Under the pieces are notes generated by a model, which did no database searches, was not told the DNA's origin, and worked only from the letters and a program-made list of their open reading frames with translations. Shown here one piece after another: positions 17,510 to 43,805 of a stretch of DNA of 50,888 nucleotides (position 1 is its first letter; each line of letters opens with the position of its first letter). The DNA lies in NCBI GenBank assembly GCA_938017575.1, contig CALIJC010000004.1, positions 1 to 50,888 of the forward strand, read 5' to 3'. Source of the stretch: an uncultured Patescibacteria group bacterium. Its GTDB lineage: Bacteria > Patescibacteriota > JACMRA01. The position numbers were made by a program, and so were the translations under genes.

Positions 17510-18904
17510 ATGGAGAATAATATTAATCACGTAGGAGTTATTGGATTAGGCGTTATGGGAGCTTCGCTGGCGCAGAATTTTGCTAGTAAAAATCACAATG
17601 TTGCTGTATATAACCGAAGCTGGGATAAAACCCAAAGCCTAATTGACAAAGGAGTCTCTGGGATTAGTGGTTATCAAGATTTAGTAGATTTTGTAGGTAG
17701 CTTGGAGTCTCCAAGAAAAATAATCCTATTGGTTAAAAGTGGTGATCCGGTTGATAAAACAATTGAAACTCTACTGCCAATGTTATCTGAAAAGGATATT
17801 GTTGTGGATATGGGGAATAGTAACTGGAAAGATACTGAAAGGAGGTATAATGAGTATGCTGGTAAAATTAGATTTGTAGGTTGCGGCGTCAGTGGAGGAG
17901 AAGAGGGAGCTCTCCATGGTCCTAGCATTATGCCAGGTGGGGAGAAGGATGCTGTGGATGAGTTACTGCCACTTCTACAAAAAATATCAGCCAAAGATTT
18001 TAATGGGAATCCTTGTGTTACTAATGTTGGTATTGGGTCAGCTGGACATTTTGTAAAGATGGTTCATAATGGAATTGAATATGCAATCATGCAAGGTATT
18101 GTTGAGGTGTACGATATTTTGAGGTCTTTTGATTTAGGAACTGGGCAAATTGCTGAAATTTTTCGGAAAGTAGATTATGGTAATATTCAAAGTTATTTGC
18201 TGGATATAACAATTAATATTTTGGAAACTCAAGATAAAGTTGATGGCGGTTATTTGCTAGAAAAAGTTGTGGAAGAAGCCAAAGCCAAAGGAACTGGTGG
18301 TTGGACAGCTCAAAGCGCTATCGAATTTGGAGTTGCAACCCCAAGTATTTCTGCTGCGGTAATTGCCAGGATTATGTCAGCTAGAAATCAGTCATATGTT
18401 ACTGATAAACTAATTGATGACCTCAAGGAAATGCGGACGACTAAATTAACTGAACCTGAGATTGAGGCTATGATAACCCCAATTTTTAGGACTTTGGAAA
18501 TGGTTTATCTCTCTAGTTATTTGCAAGGTTTAGATTTGATAAAACAGGTTGGAGATGAAAAAAACTACCAAATTGATATGAGTGAAGTAACTAGAATATG
18601 GCAGGGCGGCTGCATAATCCGTTCACAAATGCTGACAATGTTAGATTTATTCTGGGAAGAAGATAAAATTAAATCCCATAAAGTTTTATACGAAATCAAA
18701 AAAGATATAGCCTATATTAGGATGCTGCACGGGAAAAGTCATACTCCAAAACCGGTTTTGAATGCAACTTATGATTATTTCCAATCTATTTTTGCAGGTA
18801 GGTTACCAAGTAATTTAATTCAAGCACAGCGAGATTATTTCGGAGCTCACACATATCGCAAAGTAGGTGAGAAAGGTGATCATACTGGCGGCTGGAACCA
18901 ATAA
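17510..18904 (+). CDS. gnd: 6-phosphogluconate dehydrogenase, decarboxylating
   Basis: MENNINHVGVIGLGVMGASLAQNFASKNHNVAVYNRS is a Rossmann GxGxMG motif. Also present are VDMGNS, GCGVSGGEEGALHGPSIMPGG, GSAGHFVKMVHNGIEYAIMQ and IWQGGCIIRS. The start is moved from 17441 to ATG 17510. Confidence 0.92.
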   Translation: MENNINHVGVIGLGVMGASLAQNFASKNHNVAVYNRSWDKTQSLIDKGVSGISGYQDLVDFVGSLESPRKIILLVKSGDPVDKTIETLLPMLSEKDIVVDMGNSNWKDTERRYNEYAGKIRFVGCGVSGGEEGALHGPSIMPGGEKDAVDELLPLLQKISAKDFNGNPCVTNVGIGSAGHFVKMVHNGIEYAIMQGIVEVYDILRSFDLGTGQIAEIFRKVDYGNIQSYLLDITINILETQDKVDGGYLLEKVVEEAKAKGTGGWTAQSAIEFGVATPSISAAVIARIMSARNQSYVTDKLIDDLKEMRTTKLTEPEIEAMITPIFRTLEMVYLSSYLQGLDLIKQVGDEKNYQIDMSEVTRIWQGGCIIRSQMLTMLDLFWEEDKIKSHKVLYEIKKDIAYIRMLHGKSHTPKPVLNATYDYFQSIFAGRLPSNLIQAQRDYFGAHTYRKVGEKGDHTGGWNQ

Positions 18905-30572: not shown

Positions 30573-31757
30573 ATGGTTTATATAAGTTTTGATCAAAAAG
30601 AATTGGCTAGTCTTTTAAATGTTTGCAATAGTGTTAGCCCAAAGAGAAGTGAGATAAATTTATTCACGATGACAAAAATCACAGTCACTAAAGATGGCCT
30701 CGGTAGGTTTATGTCGATAAACTCTTCTTTATTTTATGTCAAAGAATTAGCTTCTCAAAAAAGCGATATAAAAGAAGAAATCTCATTCCTAGTTGGAACC
30801 GATTTACTAACCTCAGCGGTTTCGTTGATTCGAGACGATATGGTTAGCTTGGAGATAGATTTAGAAAAAACTAGTATGTCAATTGTTGGTGCCAAATCTA
30901 AACATGTTCTGAGGATAAACACACAAAATATTGATGATTTTAGTGTTCCCTCTAGCTCCGATGAAGAAGTCGAAGTGGAGTTGGAGTTATATGGAGATAG
31001 TTTCTTGGAGGCAATTAAAGTCGGTTCAACAAGTGTTGGAAATCCGCGGGTTGTTAGTCAGCCAGAATTCCTTAGTATTTGTTTGCACTACGCCGGTGAG
31101 AAAGAAGGTTTATATGTAGCCTCGACTGACAGATTTAGAATGACTCAAACTATTTTAGATTTGGTTAGTTCAAAACAGAAAGAAGATTTGTTGAGTGAGG
31201 GAGAGCCAGTAAATTATTTATTAGAGCCAAAGAGTCTGAATCTATTATCGCAAATTGTGAATGAGGGGGAGAAACTAAATCTGAGGTTTGAAAAGAATTT
31301 TTTGTGGATTGATTTTGAAAATGGAAAAATGGCCTTTCGTTATCGTGACGGTAAATTCCCTGATTGGAGAAAGATCCTTCCCCAGAGCTTTAGCTGTAGT
31401 TTCAATTTGAATAGTAATGATTTACTGGACGCTTTAAAACAGGTTTATTTTTCTGCAAGAACTAATGCAATTAATAAAACAATTACAATTGAGGTTAACC
31501 CTGAATCAAGCCTAGTAACGTTTATTGCAAAATCTGAAGAAGATGGAGCTAGTAGTGAAAGTAGTATCGAGTTAAACCAGTATGAAGGTGTTAGTGAGAA
31601 ATGGTCCCAGTCATTTAATGCAGATTATTTGTTAGATTATATTTCTGTGTTAAAAACTGAGAATGTTACTTGGGAAGCAAATCCTGGCAAACCTTCGGTA
31701 CTTTCTCCAATGGGTGGAAAAGATAAACAACTTTGTTTGGTAAGTGGACTGCGATAA
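30573..31757 (+). CDS. dnaN: DNA polymerase III beta subunit (sliding clamp)
   Basis: The N-terminal FDQKELASLLNVCNSVSPKRSEINLF, STDRFRMTQ, GKFPDWRKILPQ, FNADYLLDYISVL and C-terminal KPSVLSP ... CLVSGLR follow the canonical DnaN blocks. Confidence 0.88.
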   Translation: MVYISFDQKELASLLNVCNSVSPKRSEINLFTMTKITVTKDGLGRFMSINSSLFYVKELASQKSDIKEEISFLVGTDLLTSAVSLIRDDMVSLEIDLEKTSMSIVGAKSKHVLRINTQNIDDFSVPSSSDEEVEVELELYGDSFLEAIKVGSTSVGNPRVVSQPEFLSICLHYAGEKEGLYVASTDRFRMTQTILDLVSSKQKEDLLSEGEPVNYLLEPKSLNLLSQIVNEGEKLNLRFEKNFLWIDFENGKMAFRYRDGKFPDWRKILPQSFSCSFNLNSNDLLDALKQVYFSARTNAINKTITIEVNPESSLVTFIAKSEEDGASSESSIELNQYEGVSEKWSQSFNADYLLDYISVLKTENVTWEANPGKPSVLSPMGGKDKQLCLVSGLR

Positions 31758-31831: not shown

Positions 31832-31902
31832 GGATGTATAGCTCAATGGTAGAGCTGCGGTTTAATACTCCGTGAGTGGGGGTTCGAATCCTTCTACATC
31901 CG
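31832..31902 (+). tRNA. 71-nt tRNA with an atypical anticodon arm; the canonical 7-nt loop reading gives anticodon AAU (nominally Ile), so identity is uncertain
   Basis: Acceptor GGATGTA / TACATCC, D arm GCTC-AATGGTA-GAGC, T arm GGGGG-TTCGAAT-CCTTC, 4-nt variable loop, discriminator G, no encoded CCA. The anticodon arm is GCGGT-TTAATAC-TCCGT, with G-U at its outer end and a U-U mismatch closing the loop. Confidence 0.75.
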
Positions 31903-31905
31903 CTT

Positions 31906-34426: not shown

Positions 34427-34450
34427 TTATACGAAGCCAATAGATTTTTA
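34427..34450 (+). repeat. 24-mer motif copy A (TTATACGAAGCCAATAGATTTTTA)
   Basis: 23/24 identical to the reverse complement of the tetR-flanking repeats. Lies 81-104 nt upstream of ATG 34531 and 21 nt upstream of a TTGACA box. Confidence 0.7.
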
Positions 34451-35339: not shown

Positions 35340-35361
35340 TTATACGAAATTAATATTTTTG
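35340..35361 (+). repeat. 24-mer motif copy B (degenerate: TTATACGAAATTAATATTTTTG)
   Basis: About 20/24 with one gap. Embedded in a duplicate of the typA-proximal sequence. Confidence 0.5.
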
Positions 35362-35604: not shown

Positions 35605-35628
35605 TTATACGAAGTTAATAAATTTTTA
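35605..35628 (+). repeat. 24-mer motif copy C (TTATACGAAGTTAATAAATTTTTA)
   Basis: 22/24 to the consensus. Lies 78-101 nt upstream of the typA ATG and 17 nt upstream of TTGACA 35646..35651. Confidence 0.65.
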
Positions 35629-37638: not shown

Positions 37639-38604
37639 ATGACTGAAAAAAGGAAGTTTTTAGGGTTTTATCCAAATAAAACAATCTGGGCTGGAAATGC
37701 CGCTAACATCAATGGTGATTGTTTGGAATTTCTACCTAAGTTGTTTTCTGAGATTGTTTACTCATTTTCTAGTGATTATTTTGAACTAAAAGTTTGTCGA
37801 GACGGGATGTTTTTAATTAGTTTGAAATTTGCTAATAGTAACGTTGGTATATATCTGGATTATATTAATGCATTTTATGTGACAATGGAATCAGTAATCA
37901 GTCAAAATACTTTTCAAAAATATTTCTCATTACAAGAAATTACCATTGAGGATTATATTTATCATGAGTTTATCGGGGATAAGGTTATTGTAACTAGGAC
38001 CGATAATTTAAATATACAAACCAACTATCAGTATAAATCACGGCAGTTGAGTGGATATATTCCAGTTGATTTCAATAAGATAGACATTAGAAATAACAAA
38101 TTTTGGCGAGATCTACTAATTCATACAATCAATAATGATGATAGAAACAAGGGTCGATGGGACAGGATAGTTTCAGTTGAACAGTTAGAGTTAGTAGCTA
38201 GGACCTTTGAGAGGATTTGTCAGAGCTGGGAGCATGTGAACCTATTATCGAAACTGGTTAGGGTGGTTCAAGAAATAAATCTAGGTAATTATACTTACGC
38301 AATTAGTTATAGTTGGCTTATAATCGAGATTTACTTAGATAAACTTTATTATACGAATAATCAATTAGGAGATAAAAATGATGGTCAGCCTATTTCATCA
38401 AGAGATTTAATTAATGGTCTTAGGGATAGGAAAGTCTTACCTAGAGAACTTGCAAATGAAATACATCAATTGAGAATTACTCGTAATGGAATAATTCATA
38501 AACAACAAGAAAAGGCTAGTTTTGATCAGGCAGCATTAGCGGTTGAAATAATTAGAGAATTTATTAGGAAAGATATTGCAGTAGATATTAAATTATTATT
38601 TTAG
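37639..38604 (+). CDS. Protein with an unknown N-terminal domain and a C-terminal HEPN-type domain (RxxxxH RNase motif)
   Basis: The C-terminal roughly 110 residues read YAISYSWLIIEIYLDKLY ... LPRELANEIHQLRITRNGIIHKQQEKASFDQAALAVEIIREFI. R-N-G-I-I-H (38482..38499) fits the HEPN R-[NHD]-x3-H signature in its usual helix context. Confidence 0.7.
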   Translation: MTEKRKFLGFYPNKTIWAGNAANINGDCLEFLPKLFSEIVYSFSSDYFELKVCRDGMFLISLKFANSNVGIYLDYINAFYVTMESVISQNTFQKYFSLQEITIEDYIYHEFIGDKVIVTRTDNLNIQTNYQYKSRQLSGYIPVDFNKIDIRNNKFWRDLLIHTINNDDRNKGRWDRIVSVEQLELVARTFERICQSWEHVNLLSKLVRVVQEINLGNYTYAISYSWLIIEIYLDKLYYTNNQLGDKNDGQPISSRDLINGLRDRKVLPRELANEIHQLRITRNGIIHKQQEKASFDQAALAVEIIREFIRKDIAVDIKLLF

Positions 38605-40899: not shown

Positions 40900-41847
40900 T
40901 TAGAATAAATGTTTTGGGTTTAACCTAATTTGTAGGTTCTGCCTTTTTGTCTCGTTTATCAAATCTCTTTTTAATTGGAAAAATTTAGGGTATTGTTTGG
41001 GGTATTTAATCAGAAAATGATATGAATAATAGTTTTTTCTACGTAAAAATCTGGCCGGATAAGGTGATGAAATGGTAATATCTGGGTATTTTTCTTTTTG
41101 ATTTTTTGAAATAATATTTTTAGTTCCATTTATCAAATCCCAGGCTTTATCTTTATTTTTCTCTTGGACTGTTATTAATATTAGATTATTAAATGGTGGG
41201 AATTTGTATTGTTTTCTGATCTCAGATTCTTGCTTGAGGAATTTTATAAACCAATCAAGGAGGTCTTTTTTACCCATGTTTGATAGTTTTGAAAGATCTG
41301 TAAATAGCTCTGATTCAGGTGAACTAGTATCGAAAATTACCTGAGTTTTATCACTACAATCCAGCAATACCTCTGTTAATTGTTTGGTTGTGTCTTCTTG
41401 AACTAGATAATCAGGACTAGATAATAAGTTCTCGCTAGAGACAAAAATCACCTTGGAGAAATCACTATAATTTATAGATGGATCATAAATCCTGGTTGTG
41501 ACAAAAATGGATTCATTAATATATTTACTATATAAGAACTTTTTATTATCTAGTCTGATTACTTTTTGATTTACCTCTTGTTCGATTATTTCTGATAAAC
41601 GATCTATCCCTTCTAATACAGAAGAAAAATCTTCTTGGCCACAATTTTGGCAATTTACAGGATAACTATAATAACTTTGACATTGATGACAAACTAGTTC
41701 CAAATTCTTTTCCCATTTTTTGTAGGTCACTAAATTGCTATCACAATTTTTACATTGATATGTATATTTGCAGTTGTTACATTTTGTTAAAAGATACAAT
41801 CCTTTGCGTGGATAGATAAATAGGATTTTTGGTTTGTTATTTTTCAT
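40900..41847 (-). CDS. priA: Primosomal protein N-prime (PriA)-like, C-terminal half (Cys-rich region plus C-terminal domain)
   Basis: ILFIYPRKGLYLLTKCNNCKYTYQCKNCDSNLVTYKK ... LVCHQCQSYYSYPVNCQNCG reproduces the PriA NRRGY block and the four CxxC pairs. Confidence 0.75.
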   Translation of the reverse strand: MKNNKPKILFIYPRKGLYLLTKCNNCKYTYQCKNCDSNLVTYKKWEKNLELVCHQCQSYYSYPVNCQNCGQEDFSSVLEGIDRLSEIIEQEVNQKVIRLDNKKFLYSKYINESIFVTTRIYDPSINYSDFSKVIFVSSENLLSSPDYLVQEDTTKQLTEVLLDCSDKTQVIFDTSSPESELFTDLSKLSNMGKKDLLDWFIKFLKQESEIRKQYKFPPFNNLILITVQEKNKDKAWDLINGTKNIISKNQKEKYPDITISSPYPARFLRRKNYYSYHFLIKYPKQYPKFFQLKRDLINETKRQNLQIRLNPKHLF

Positions 41848-41855
41848 TGATTTAC

Positions 41856-42974
41856 TTATTCGTTTGTAAAAATTTCGTTAATATCTTCTTGGTCGTTCAA
41901 AATATCCAAAATTTGGTTAGAAATCACCTTAAATTTGTCATTTTTGAAGTTCTTCTCATATATTTTGATTCTGGGGAGCTTTTTATTATTTTGGCTATAG
42001 TTCGTCGATATTTTATTCAAAACACTCTCAGAATAGAAATTTGAAAGGCGAATTGAGGGTAGGGTGCTAATAAAGTCTAAATCACAGTTAAATGACTTTG
42101 AAAGAAGAAAACAGGCGTCTCGAGTATCATAATATAAAGAATTCTGTTCTTGGATATAAAATGAATTAGATTCGTCAACTAGTATGATTTTGTTAATTGA
42201 GCTAAAAGGTAAAAATATTCCTGCTTTGGTTGATAGAATTATATTAATTCGTTGTTTAGAATCTTGGTTCGTATAACTAAAATAGGGTGATGTCTTTATT
42301 ATATTAATAATGGTTTCTTGGTCACTTTTTCTCCTTTCAGCTTTATATTTATATATATTAATTAGGTTAGCGTCTGTAGATAGATTAGGGAAGGTAAAAT
42401 TTTCTTTATTTTGAGTAAAATTGTCCAAAATCTTTTTTTCAGGAAAAACCACCAAAATGTTAATATCCTGTAGTGGGCTTTTATAAGATAGCTTTAAATA
42501 GCTCGAAATACTTATTCGTATAATATTTCTTATACGAATAAGAAGCTCTGAATCCAAAATAAACTCTAAGTTTGGTGGTCTTTTGTCACCACCCTGTTTA
42601 TTTTCAATGTCGGTAATATTTTGACCTTCATAAATCGATTCTGAGAGGTTTTTAGTATTCTTTTGATTAATTACCTTGATGGGATTCACTACTGATTCAA
42701 ATAATATATTTGGGCTATTAAATGTATTATTAGCCATATTCTTGATAAAATCCATTTGATTACTGGATAGGATATAAGGAAAAGTCCCAGAAACAGGTTT
42801 TATATTGGATAAATCTCCTTTTAGTGTATTATTTTGAGATATAACAACGCCAAAAACTTCTGTATTCCTGATATTTATCAGTACTATCTGCCCAGGTATA
42901 AAATCTTTATCTGATTTATAAGTTAATGTATCGATTGGGAGTTTTTTTTCTGGTAGTATCTGATAATAGTTCAT
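41856..42974 (-). CDS. priA: PriA-like, N-terminal half (3-prime-DNA-binding region and helicase lobe 1 remnant lacking Walker A)
   Basis: MNYYQILPEKKLPIDTLTYKSDKDFIPGQIVLINIRNTEVFGVV has a PriA-type N-terminus. NILVVFPEKKIL, IILVDESNSFYIQEQ (DExH-like) and DFISTLPS are colinear with PriA. No GxGKT motif is present. It ends 8 nt before the next ORF, in a different frame. Confidence 0.7.
   Translation of the reverse strand: MNYYQILPEKKLPIDTLTYKSDKDFIPGQIVLINIRNTEVFGVVISQNNTLKGDLSNIKPVSGTFPYILSSNQMDFIKNMANNTFNSPNILFESVVNPIKVINQKNTKNLSESIYEGQNITDIENKQGGDKRPPNLEFILDSELLIRIRNIIRISISSYLKLSYKSPLQDINILVVFPEKKILDNFTQNKENFTFPNLSTDANLINIYKYKAERRKSDQETIINIIKTSPYFSYTNQDSKQRINIILSTKAGIFLPFSSINKIILVDESNSFYIQEQNSLYYDTRDACFLLSKSFNCDLDFISTLPSIRLSNFYSESVLNKISTNYSQNNKKLPRIKIYEKNFKNDKFKVISNQILDILNDQEDINEIFTNE
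42511..42542. repeat. Perfect 13-6-13 inverted repeat inside the priA N-terminal ORF
   Basis: CTTATTCGTATAA-TATTTC-TTATACGAATAAG. Both arms contain the TTATACGAA core. It encodes LIRIRNIIRIS. Confidence 0.9.
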
Positions 42975-43079
42975 TATAAATGATTGATTAAATAGTTTGC
43001 TTTGTTCGAATCTAGAAGATTCTTACTTTGTGTAAAACGCCATCAATATGACGTTTTACTTATACGAACCAAGTCTTGG

Positions 43080-43805
43080 TTACTCTCCTTTCCATACTCC
43101 GTATGCTATAAAACTGAGATTTCGCTCAGAAATAACACTAGAATCTAATTGCCTTATAGTTCCACTAGCAGCGTTTCGAGGATTGGAGAATTTTGCTTCT
43201 TCACCTGTTTTACCCCCCTTACCTGTAATCTCTCCTTTGGCAATTCTTTGATTCATTTTTTCAAAATTATCCTTAGTAAAGAAAACCTCACCTCTTATTT
43301 CTAATTTTTCATTAAAAGAAATTTTTGTGGGTATACTTTTGATTTGTAGGGCATTTTTAGTTACAAGTTCGCCAATTCTACTATCTCCACGCGTAATGGC
43401 TGAAATTAGCTCTCCGTTGTTATAATGTAAACTAAGTGCCAATCCATCAATTTTAGGCTCGCAAATGTAATCCTTGTGACCCGAATAATCAATATTAGAT
43501 TTTTCACTGTGATTTTTCCACCGATCTTCCCAATCTGATAGCTCATCAATATTAAAAATATCATTTAATGAAAGCATCCTTCTTTTGTGACTAGCTTTTT
43601 CGAACTTTTCTAGAACGCCACCAGCAATTGTATAATTTGGACTATTAGGACTAATTTCTTTTGGATGTTCATTTTCCCAGATTGTAATTTTGTGTTTCAA
43701 ATCGTCGAGGGCGGCTTCACCAATTTCGTCATTATTAAAAATATGAATTTCATTACGCAATCTGTTGACTTCAGAAACCATCTGAAGATACTCTTTTTTA
43801 TTCAT
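43080..43805 (-). CDS. ligA: NAD-dependent DNA ligase LigA, N-terminal fragment only (241 aa; domain Ia and part of the adenylation domain)
   Basis: YICEPKIDGLALSL (KxDG motif I), LEIRGEVFF (motif III) and FSNPRNAASGTIRQLD. The ORF stops after FIAYGVWKGE. Motifs IV-V and the OB, Zn, HhH and BRCT regions are absent, and priA starts 105 nt downstream. Confidence 0.8.
   Translation of the reverse strand: MNKKEYLQMVSEVNRLRNEIHIFNNDEIGEAALDDLKHKITIWENEHPKEISPNSPNYTIAGGVLEKFEKASHKRRMLSLNDIFNIDELSDWEDRWKNHSEKSNIDYSGHKDYICEPKIDGLALSLHYNNGELISAITRGDSRIGELVTKNALQIKSIPTKISFNEKLEIRGEVFFTKDNFEKMNQRIAKGEITGKGGKTGEEAKFSNPRNAASGTIRQLDSSVISERNLSFIAYGVWKGE

Follow-up and report, generated by a model that had tools for sequence, protein, structure and literature searches.

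A symmetric, lox-like palindrome within a PriA-like gene as the probable single-recombinase dif site of a class of Patescibacteria

The window analyzed here is the entire 50,888-bp contig (C4) of assembly G000 (1.04 Mb, 33% G+C, 78 contigs, 78% complete), from an uncultured Patescibacteria group bacterium. On its minus strand lies a PriA-like gene, and within the coding region of that gene is a perfect inverted repeat that is very probably the chromosome's single-recombinase dif site. The dif site is the place where a recombinase parts joined sister chromosomes, and Xer/dif is a textbook system. What appears to be new, and is put forward with considerable confidence, is a lox-like, symmetric dif site served by one recombinase together with FtsK and FtsK-orienting polar sequences (KOPS), held inside a gene throughout a class and lying beside polar, arm-like motifs. 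The literature searched yielded no paper joining a dif site, Xer and Patescibacteria, and nothing relevant on chromosome dimer resolution in the Candidate Phyla Radiation or on dif in priA. The central features are the following:

42511..42542, no strand: perfect 13-6-13 inverted repeat, the proposed dif core site, with arms CTTATTCGTATAA and TTATACGAATAAG.
42517..42536, no strand: class-conserved 7-6-7 core, CGTATAA-N6-TTATACG, defined by the class-wide search and the frozen codons beneath it.
41856..42974, minus strand: PriA-like N-terminal open reading frame (ORF), 372 amino acids, with a 3'-DNA-binding domain and a degenerate helicase lobe 1; the site occupies codons 145-155.
40900..41847, minus strand: PriA-like C-terminal ORF, 315 amino acids, with a Cys-rich zinc finger and PriA_C (Pfam).

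The plus strand of 42511-42542 reads CTTATTCGTATAA-TATTTC-TTATACGAATAAG, that is, two perfect 13-nt arms about a 6-nt spacer, exactly as described in an initial annotation of this DNA, and in the minus-strand ORF 41856..42974 it encodes L145-S155 (LIRIRNIIRIS), as that annotation had also read it. A dif site has two inverted arms around a 6-8 bp centre, and this architecture is found as 13-6-13 in the window and as an invariant 7-6-7 in the class. Neither a second copy of the palindrome in the window (at up to three mismatches) nor an Rfam match at the palindrome was found. By itself the palindrome is mildly unusual and constitutes weak evidence, because a perfect inverted repeat with arms of at least 13 and a spacer of at most 12 arose in 80 of 2000 first-order Markov copies of the window (4%) and the G000 genome holds 19 such repeats; it is the comparative data that carry the case. 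The initial annotation had taken the repeat for a tyrosine-recombinase core site of dif/lox layout, to be checked by a whole-genome search, by a search for xerC/xerD-like genes, by GC skew and by alignment with relatives. That interpretation is now supported by codon conservation, copy number, the presence of a recombinase, location at the terminus and KOPS.

The class set comprised 27 genomes (the class here is coextensive with its order; G001 is a congener of the window genome, and G025 represents the second family of the class), and the control was the same pattern read backwards. The exact core is present in 25 of the 27 genomes and the reversed control in none. Among 401 genomes of the phylum, 376 of them outside the class, the core occurs in 4 of the 376 against 2/401 for the control, which is chance level. 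A dif site is present once per chromosome; the core is single-copy in the G000 genome, as the whole-genome search established, and exactly one copy is found in 22 of the 25 carriers, with a copy inside the PriA-like ORF in 23. When perfect 7-N(4-10)-7 repeats with at least two G/C per arm were compared between G000 and G018, the sole closed relative (a single contig of 1,272,640 bp), five were common to both; only the core has a spacer of 6 bp, and 16S rRNA accounts for two of the other four. The initial annotation had considered that the palindrome might be an insertion or replacement peculiar to this genome, which is not borne out because the palindrome is class-wide. Departures from the pattern are few: G021 has a one-base variant of the core, in the gene; neither the PriA-like gene nor the site was found in G003 (84% complete); and the PriA-like gene of G002 is interrupted at the site, its parts lying at two contig ends.

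Homologues of the N-terminal ORF were identified in 28 of 41 related genomes, with 26-47% identity to the window protein. In 16 aligned homologues (30-47% protein identity) the peptide R-I-x-[YNC]-[IL]-I-R is conserved, and the nucleotides conserved in the same 16 are CGT ATA A.. ....TT ATA CG. There are 67 degenerate conserved columns, defined as those in which at least 12 of the 16 sequences share an amino acid having synonymous codons. Invariant codons are found in 4 of the 67, every one of them inside the palindrome:

R147: CGT in 16/16.
I148: ATA in 16/16.
I151: ATT in 13/13.
I152: ATA in 16/16.

Elsewhere, invariant Arg columns use five different codons. Because only the palindrome codons are frozen and other conserved residues vary synonymously, the alignment indicates that selection is acting on the DNA or RNA and not on the protein. 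The initial annotation had named relatives encoding the same peptide with non-palindromic codons as the observation that would speak against a site; relatives instead keep the palindromic codons. Selection on a DNA site would fix these codons, and hence the peptide R-I-x-x-[IL]-I-R. In one genome, G017, the PriA-like gene is intact yet lacks both the site and the RIxYIIR motif, with WSNRITDLLYSK there instead, and its only exact core is intergenic on a different contig; this single case suggests that it is the DNA site that imposes the peptide motif.

An orthologue of an Xer-like tyrosine recombinase is encoded in all 27 genomes of the class, at 46-80% identity to the G000 copy (G000:C76:8544-9479, outside the window), so that the search for xerC/xerD-like genes has returned a conserved chromosomal Xer-family enzyme. 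It is much better conserved than the PriA-like protein, and a Pfam-family search of four genomes found one integrase-family gene in each. The best NCBIfam model for the recombinase is XerA, at 213.1 bits (cut-off 220), followed by XerC and XerD, and its nearest PDB sequence matches are XerA and XerD. Where site and recombinase gene share a contig (G021, G011, G002, G013, G018 and G022), they are 6-43 kb apart. FtsK is present in 5/5 genomes tested, and its KOPS-reading gamma domain in 4/4.

The position of the site on the chromosome was determined in G018. In its cumulative GC skew the minimum falls at 251 kb and the maximum at 899 kb, followed by a plateau that extends to about 926 kb; the cumulative coding-strand bias is lowest near 260 kb and highest at 860-900 kb. 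The site, at 914,117-914,136, is on the plateau of the skew maximum. Since the genes for 16S rRNA (plus strand, 424 kb), rpoC (plus strand, 472 kb) and rplP (minus strand, 158 kb) are co-directional with replication from an origin at about 250 kb, the 900-kb region is the terminus, despite the presence of dnaA at 857 kb. The skew analysis thus places the site at the terminal skew switch, where KOPS-type motifs also converge. Within 30 kb on each side of the site, local GC skew is higher on the left in six of seven contigs, clearly so in four.

A scan of G018 for 8-mers with strand skew gave GGGTAGGG as the top word, with 41 leading-strand and no lagging-strand copies; the next is AGTAGGGG (40 to 2), and GAGTAGGG (27 to 0) is within the top seven. 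GGGTAGGG fits GGGNAGGG, the consensus of FtsK-orienting polar sequences as given in PMC5357621. A listing of RRGTAGGG copies, which makes no assumption about the terminus, showed that 111 of 120 follow replichore polarity in G018, and that the strand switch falls between the last plus-strand copy at 912,635 and the first minus-strand copy at 914,598, a 1,963-bp interval that contains the site. The motifs switch strand across the site in six of seven genomes, within 2 kb in three; in G009 there is no RRGTAGGG copy on one side. The other switches are:

G019: last plus-strand copy 38,626, site 40,000, first minus-strand copy 40,404; 1.8 kb interval.
G013: last plus-strand copy 27,343, site 28,831, first minus-strand copy 29,235; 1.9 kb interval.
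G008: last plus-strand copy 33,303, site 38,701, first minus-strand copy 40,267; 7 kb interval.
G006: last plus-strand copy 27,854, site 40,000, first minus-strand copy 47,476; 20 kb interval, with two later exceptions.
Window: last plus-strand copy 42,057, site 42,516, first minus-strand copy 46,894; 7/7 copies polar.

In the window these copies are:

42057..42064, plus strand: nearest KOPS-type motif on the left, GGGTAGGG, pointing at the site.
12387, 14828, 36467 and 36803, plus strand: other KOPS-type copies on the left, all pointing at the site.
46894..46901, minus strand: nearest KOPS-type motif on the right, GGGTAGGG, pointing at the site.
47688-47695, minus strand: further KOPS-type copy on the right, pointing at the site.

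In the mechanism proposed, two monomers of the single Xer-like recombinase (a homodimer on each duplex) would bind the two identical arms. Two such sites would synapse and strands would be exchanged at the borders of the 6-bp centre, leading to resolution of chromosome dimers at the terminus. FtsK, steered by the converging RRGTAGGG motifs, would bring the sites together and would probably license the reaction. Because exchange between identical sites is conservative, the host gene would be left unharmed. The site has resided throughout the class in a PriA-like gene without Walker A. Mobile elements with the same arms and other centres presumably exploit the host recombinase for integration or for resolution of their multimers.

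Several points weigh against the identification of the palindrome as dif. What was observed is sequence, conservation, copy number, position and the presence of the enzymes; we infer binding, strand exchange and the role of FtsK from the anatomy of the site and the families involved, and no recombination or binding was observed. The recombinase scores below every NCBIfam equivalog cut-off. The terminus was tested in one closed genome, G018, and the 8-mer ranking presupposed a terminus at the site, which introduces some circularity for G018 and none for the other five genomes. Local skew is weak and noisy, the difference being no more than 0.02 in G008 and G013 and reversed in G006. Unusually, the proposed terminus has dnaA close to it in G018 (856,615) and dnaN in the window (30573-31757); their position would suggest an origin, but the skew, gene strand, orientation of rRNA and ribosomal-protein genes, and KOPS all disagree. 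Logan contigs from three public runs of one study contained no joints at the site and crossed it unchanged, such contigs being blind to rare forms. The coding location also counts against a dif site: in the survey of Kono et al. (2011, PMC3025954), 93.92% of predicted dif sites are given as non-coding and the genes holding the remainder as mostly hypothetical, so that predicted dif sites are rarely (about 6%) in genes, though supplementary tables might list exceptions.

It is unlikely that the palindrome is a mere attachment site (attB) for integrative elements, with no role in resolving host dimers. The suggestion has some basis, as six further exact copies of the core (in G002, G015, G017 and G020) lie outside the PriA-like gene, all of them intergenic and at least four beside mobile-element genes, including the integrase at G002:C21 and the serine recombinase at G020:C42. 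The break in the G002 PriA-like gene at the site also speaks for it. The extra copies have these neighbours:

G002:C13: a ParA-type ATPase and a YhcG nuclease.
G002:C21: a tyrosine integrase (400 bp away), a DDE transposase and a Y-family polymerase.
G020:C9: CHAP-domain and IstB-like proteins.
G020:C42: a large serine recombinase.
G015:C108: a HigB/HigA pair and the contig end.
G017:C119: an M23 peptidase, a VirB4/HerA-like ATPase and the contig end.

In these copies the arms are kept and the central regions differ. The same arms with other centres are the pattern of plasmids and integrative elements that borrow the host Xer system. KOPS and half-site counts are sparse on the contigs of the extra copies, too few to pick out the chromosomal dif. 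Set against attachment as the sole function is the class-wide freezing of codons, as hosts do not keep synonymous sites to benefit parasites. Moreover, the site is within 2 kb of the KOPS switch in three genomes and at the skew terminus, and the chromosomal Xer-like recombinase is present in all 27 genomes, including the 22 single-copy genomes that have no extra sites. Assembly breaks at or near the site in G002 and G012 were considered as alternative junctions and set aside, as ordinary fragmentation explains them equally; in G024 the break is elsewhere.

Sites of related form are also present in viral sequence. Thirteen viral contigs of IMG/VR (L162-L174) carry TTCGTATAA-N6-TTATACGAA, several of the sites being near terminase genes. 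Among them are two families of near-identical sites located next to packaging genes, and the site of L173 has complete lox-type 13-bp arms with a variant spacer. No tyrosine recombinase was found within 2 kb of the viral sites (28 ORFs, at 8 of the 13 loci). The viral contigs were examined as a link to the class, and none was obtained.

The site might instead be bound at the terminus by some other protein, for termination or chromosome organization, and act with a polar array and no strand exchange, an explanation that we judge very unlikely. It draws on a second pattern, to which the "dispersed 24-mer" of the initial annotation belongs: polar, arm-like motifs of the form TTATACGAAGT near the terminus. 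That annotation had expected the 9-mer shared with the arms about once in the window and counted it nine times; the count holds for the copies outside the palindrome, there being 11 copies of TTATACGAA in the window, two of which are the palindrome arms, against 0.63 expected from shuffles. The excess is local to the window contig, because genome-wide there are 39 copies versus about 26 expected from base composition. The half-sites in the window are:

18686..18694, plus strand: TTATACGAA, to the left and directed at the site; within a coding sequence, on the sense strand.
34427..34437, plus strand: TTATACGAAGC, intergenic, pointing at the site; one copy of the "dispersed 24-mer".
35340..35350, plus strand: TTATACGAAAT, intergenic, pointing at the site.
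35605..35615, plus strand: TTATACGAAGT, intergenic, pointing at the site.
38349..38357, plus strand: TTATACGAA, pointing at the site.
42268..42276, minus strand: core-proximal half-site about 250 bp off, in the PriA-like coding sequence (YTNQ); oriented like the nearer core arm and hence reversed relative to the distal copies.
43060..43068, plus strand: core-proximal half-site about 540 bp off, in the intergenic stretch that separates the PriA-like gene from the ligA fragment; likewise oriented like the nearer core arm.
47846..47856, minus strand: TTATACGAAGT, to the right and directed at the site; start of an exact 29-mer repeated at 48602.
48600..48610, minus strand: TTATACGAAGT, to the right and directed at the site; the 29-mer's second copy, beyond the TetR gene 47859..48500.

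Across seven genomes, 47 of the 51 TTATACGAA copies outside the core point at the site (24 of 26 on the plus strand to its left, 23 of 25 on the minus strand to its right). In G018, 21 of 22 copies are within 270 kb of the site, as are all ten copies of the 11-mer TTATACGAAGT, every one of which is polar. For 40 permuted 9-mers used as a control, a mean of 42% were near the terminus and polarity was 59%. Half-sites occur in all three sense frames, in antisense and in intergenic DNA (15/51), and the extension that they commonly carry, GT(C), prolongs the recombinase arm in the way seen in loxP and the best core sites. G001 has counterparts of both core-proximal half-sites, at the same offset for the copy at 42268 and at +500 for that at 43060. 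This layout recalls the opposed polar arrays that flank a terminus. Yet in its anatomy the core is exactly a tyrosine-recombinase site, with strong identity to dif and loxP, and the cognate enzyme family is conserved; a perfect palindrome, moreover, cannot itself be polar. A role for terminus-binding may well be true of the half-sites in addition to a dif site at the core, and not in its place.

That the arm has been multiplied into an Xer-bound, polar array of the terminus domain is a tentative idea, and we regard it as possible but somewhat doubtful. The copies of TTATACGAAGT(C) are confined to the roughly 40% of the chromosome nearest the terminus, almost all on the leading strand and with an orientation that flips exactly at dif; on this view single Xer monomers would bind the half-sites to form a polar, Xer-based terminus organizer. 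Such an array might, for example, block or steer FtsK or replication forks in one direction, or help to recruit the recombinase. Two other roles for the half-sites were set aside: as promoters or operators, the hexamer readings being unconvincing and the motif also occurring in all frames inside genes, and as the principal FtsK-orienting motif, the GGGNAGGG-type motif being far more skewed. Identical 29-mers, TTATACGAAGTCAATAGATTTTTACAAAA, at 47848-47876 and 48602-48630 (minus strand) form direct repeats that flank the TetR-family gene 47859-48500, with close variants at 34427 in the window and at G018:895,659; the 29-mers may represent a promoter or operator that incorporates the arm-like motif.

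There is, in our judgment, a very small probability that the palindrome acts by regulating the PriA-like gene, as an RNA hairpin in its mRNA or as an internal pair of promoters, the arms reading CGTATAAT or CGTATAAG. A stem of 7-13 bp with a 6-nt loop is possible in the mRNA, and both strands read TATAAT in many relatives. Against this, the stem is invariant and never covaries, Rfam is without a match there, and the same arms occur in intergenic DNA near mobile-element genes, away from the PriA-like gene; regulation of the gene would also leave the coincidence with the KOPS and skew switch unexplained. Chance production of the repeat by an Ile/Arg-rich peptide in an AT-rich genome, which the peptide IRI..IRI and the frequency of such repeats in simulated windows would favor, is refuted for practical purposes by the presence of the exact core in 25/27 genomes against 0/27 for the control, together with the frozen codons.

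The host gene is of interest in its own right. The ORF 41856..42974 matches the Pfam family PriA_3primeBD (PF17764), NCBIfam PriA matches being weak, and the top nine Foldseek PDB matches to an AlphaFold model of it are all PriA; the ORF 40900..41847 has PF18074 (PriA_C) and the zinc finger. The 3'-DNA-binding domain, zinc finger and C-terminal domain of PriA are found across the two ORFs, and the Walker A and DExH motifs are not: GxGK[TS] is absent from the window's PriA-like protein, and motif II reads VDESN. PriA-like proteins of the class are without GxGK[TS] and have about 27 residues fewer than a canonical PriA of the phylum (G033).

The initial annotation had put the palindrome exactly where the Walker A loop should be. 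Residues 147-153, which the site encodes, end 19 positions short of the NILVVFPE strand; in a canonical PriA from this phylum the distance from the end of GKT to AIVLVPE is 17. Measured from the conserved strand, these residues would lie approximately where GKT and the start of the following helix would fall, and the stated position holds only approximately. MAFFT alignment with canonical PriA was ambiguous and put them against the helix that precedes the P-loop. In the AlphaFold (AF2) model, residues 147-153 are within helix 140-163, which follows a disordered segment (115-138). Searches of the PDB with phmmer and the family profile aligned only motif Ib-II to solved PriA, and not the site-encoded stretch. 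Nor is loss of Walker A tied to the palindrome: among three PriA homologues examined from other classes of the phylum, L175 (G031), L177 (G029) and L176 (G033), two are also without GxGKT, so that genomes carrying the site are not alone in having lost the P-loop, and absence of the PriA ATPase motif may be common among members of the phylum.

The two ORFs of the PriA-like gene are 8 nt apart (window 41848-41855), and most family members have open frames of about 320-500 amino acids, suggesting that the split is conserved. In G025 the PriA-like frame is fused; it also carries the site and is also without GxGKT. The ligA gene (43080-43805, minus strand) is a 241-residue fragment with the adenylation domain up to profile position 162 of 253, and the whole of the 78%-complete G000 assembly yielded no LigA OB domain. 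The fragment ends at a 15-nt palindrome, AACCAAGACTTGGTT (43067-43081), which abuts the half-site at 43060. Replication genes cluster in this region: dnaN (30573-31757), dnaG (45869-47551), the PriA-like gene (40900-42974), the ligA fragment and the dnaA of G018 all lie within about 60 kb of the proposed terminus and not at the origin. The window also encodes a tRNA-Ile with anticodon AAT (31832-31903, plus strand; ARAGORN, with Rfam confirming a tRNA), an anticodon that is unusual for a bacterial isoleucine tRNA. G018 also contains, spread over its genome, a family of about 31-35 repeats around GTGTTGCTCCGAGTGTTG, nearly all if not all of them on the leading strand.

If the palindrome is indeed dif, it is unusual in being kept in one conserved gene across a class and in dictating a protein motif, RIxx[IL]IR, which has been lost in the one genome (G017) with the site elsewhere. 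Lodged in a replication gene, dif may raise the cost of integration for elements that exploit Xer, and so act as a passive defence. Bacteria of the Candidate Phyla Radiation, for which no printed dif was found, would gain a testable system of dimer resolution, consisting of a XerA-like recombinase, a lox-like site, the FtsK gamma domain and KOPS of the E. coli type. The site would be a precise marker of the terminus for assembly checks and for replication-based estimates of growth in metagenomes, and the site and its recombinase might make a new orthogonal pair for lox-like recombination. Arm-like motifs that are polar and confined to the terminus, in genomes that yielded no SMC/ScpA, would point to an undescribed way of marking the terminus domain; should the array prove real, it would be a polar, Xer-based terminus organizer, of a kind that is undescribed, in bacteria apparently without Smc-ScpAB.

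Likeness to known systems was scored by hand for the dif sites of E. coli and T. kodakarensis and for loxP. Compared with Cre/loxP of phage P1 (sequence from Table 1 of PMC1479339), the site read as 13-8-13 has inner arms, TTCGTATA and TATACGAA, identical to those of loxP, and the G008 site matches loxP at 26 of 34 positions, 15 of them consecutive. It differs in being chromosomal and located at the terminus with no cre-like gene beside it, in its outer arm positions and in having an Xer-like recombinase. Classification as a loxP-type site was rejected, as the inner 8 bp of each arm match, the outer arm differs and no recombinase gene adjoins the site.

The nearest precedent for the arm-like TTATACGAAGT copies is the XDS of the B. 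subtilis terminus, in which dif-like sequences are dotted through the terminus region besides dif. As described in PMC11840125 and PMC11894783, XDS are scattered, dif-like XerD-binding sites said to unload Smc-ScpAB. A corresponding role in SMC unloading was rejected here because the partner is lacking: no SMC hinge and no ScpA were found in any of the four class genomes searched, the closed one included.

XerS/difSL and XerH/difH resemble the present system in using a single Xer-type recombinase. In the account of PMC5357621 each has one Xer recombinase for its chromosomal site, with a gene that adjoins the site and with unequal arms, and the difSL centre is 11 bp; here, by contrast, the gene is 6-43 kb away where both are on one contig, and identical arms surround 6 bp. 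The XerS model scores 107 bits for the G000 recombinase, and XerH is the weakest among the PDB matches listed.

The resemblance noted in the initial annotation between the inner ATAA-N6-TTAT and dif is borne out by published dif sequences. With respect to the E. coli sequence as given in PMC3025954, the G008 site, ACTTCGTATAA-TGTATA-TTATACGCAAT, shares 20 of 28 positions, including the whole of the centre TGTATA. More generally, the site resembles XerCD/dif of E. coli and B. subtilis in its 11-6-11 layout, its inner ATAA/TTAT and, in several relatives, its TGTATA centre, as well as in its location at a terminus where GGGNAGGG-type motifs converge and in the presence of FtsK gamma. XerCD/dif differs in relying on two paralogous recombinases, where this class has one; the site here also has symmetric arms and lies within a coding sequence. 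Archaeal XerA/dif is described in PMC2958812 as operating without FtsK, with site searches there either restricted to non-coding DNA or finding the sites in it; the class considered here differs in having FtsK, the gamma domain and KOPS-type motifs, in its intragenic site, and in a recombinase that misses the XerA cut-off. Otherwise the XerA/dif system of Thermococcales shares with it one recombinase, near-identical inverted arms, a 6-bp centre and one site per chromosome. The G000 recombinase likewise scores best against the XerA model and XerA structures, and 20 of 28 positions, the entire centre TGTACC among them, are common to the G018 site and the T. kodakarensis dif sequence given in PMC11840125.

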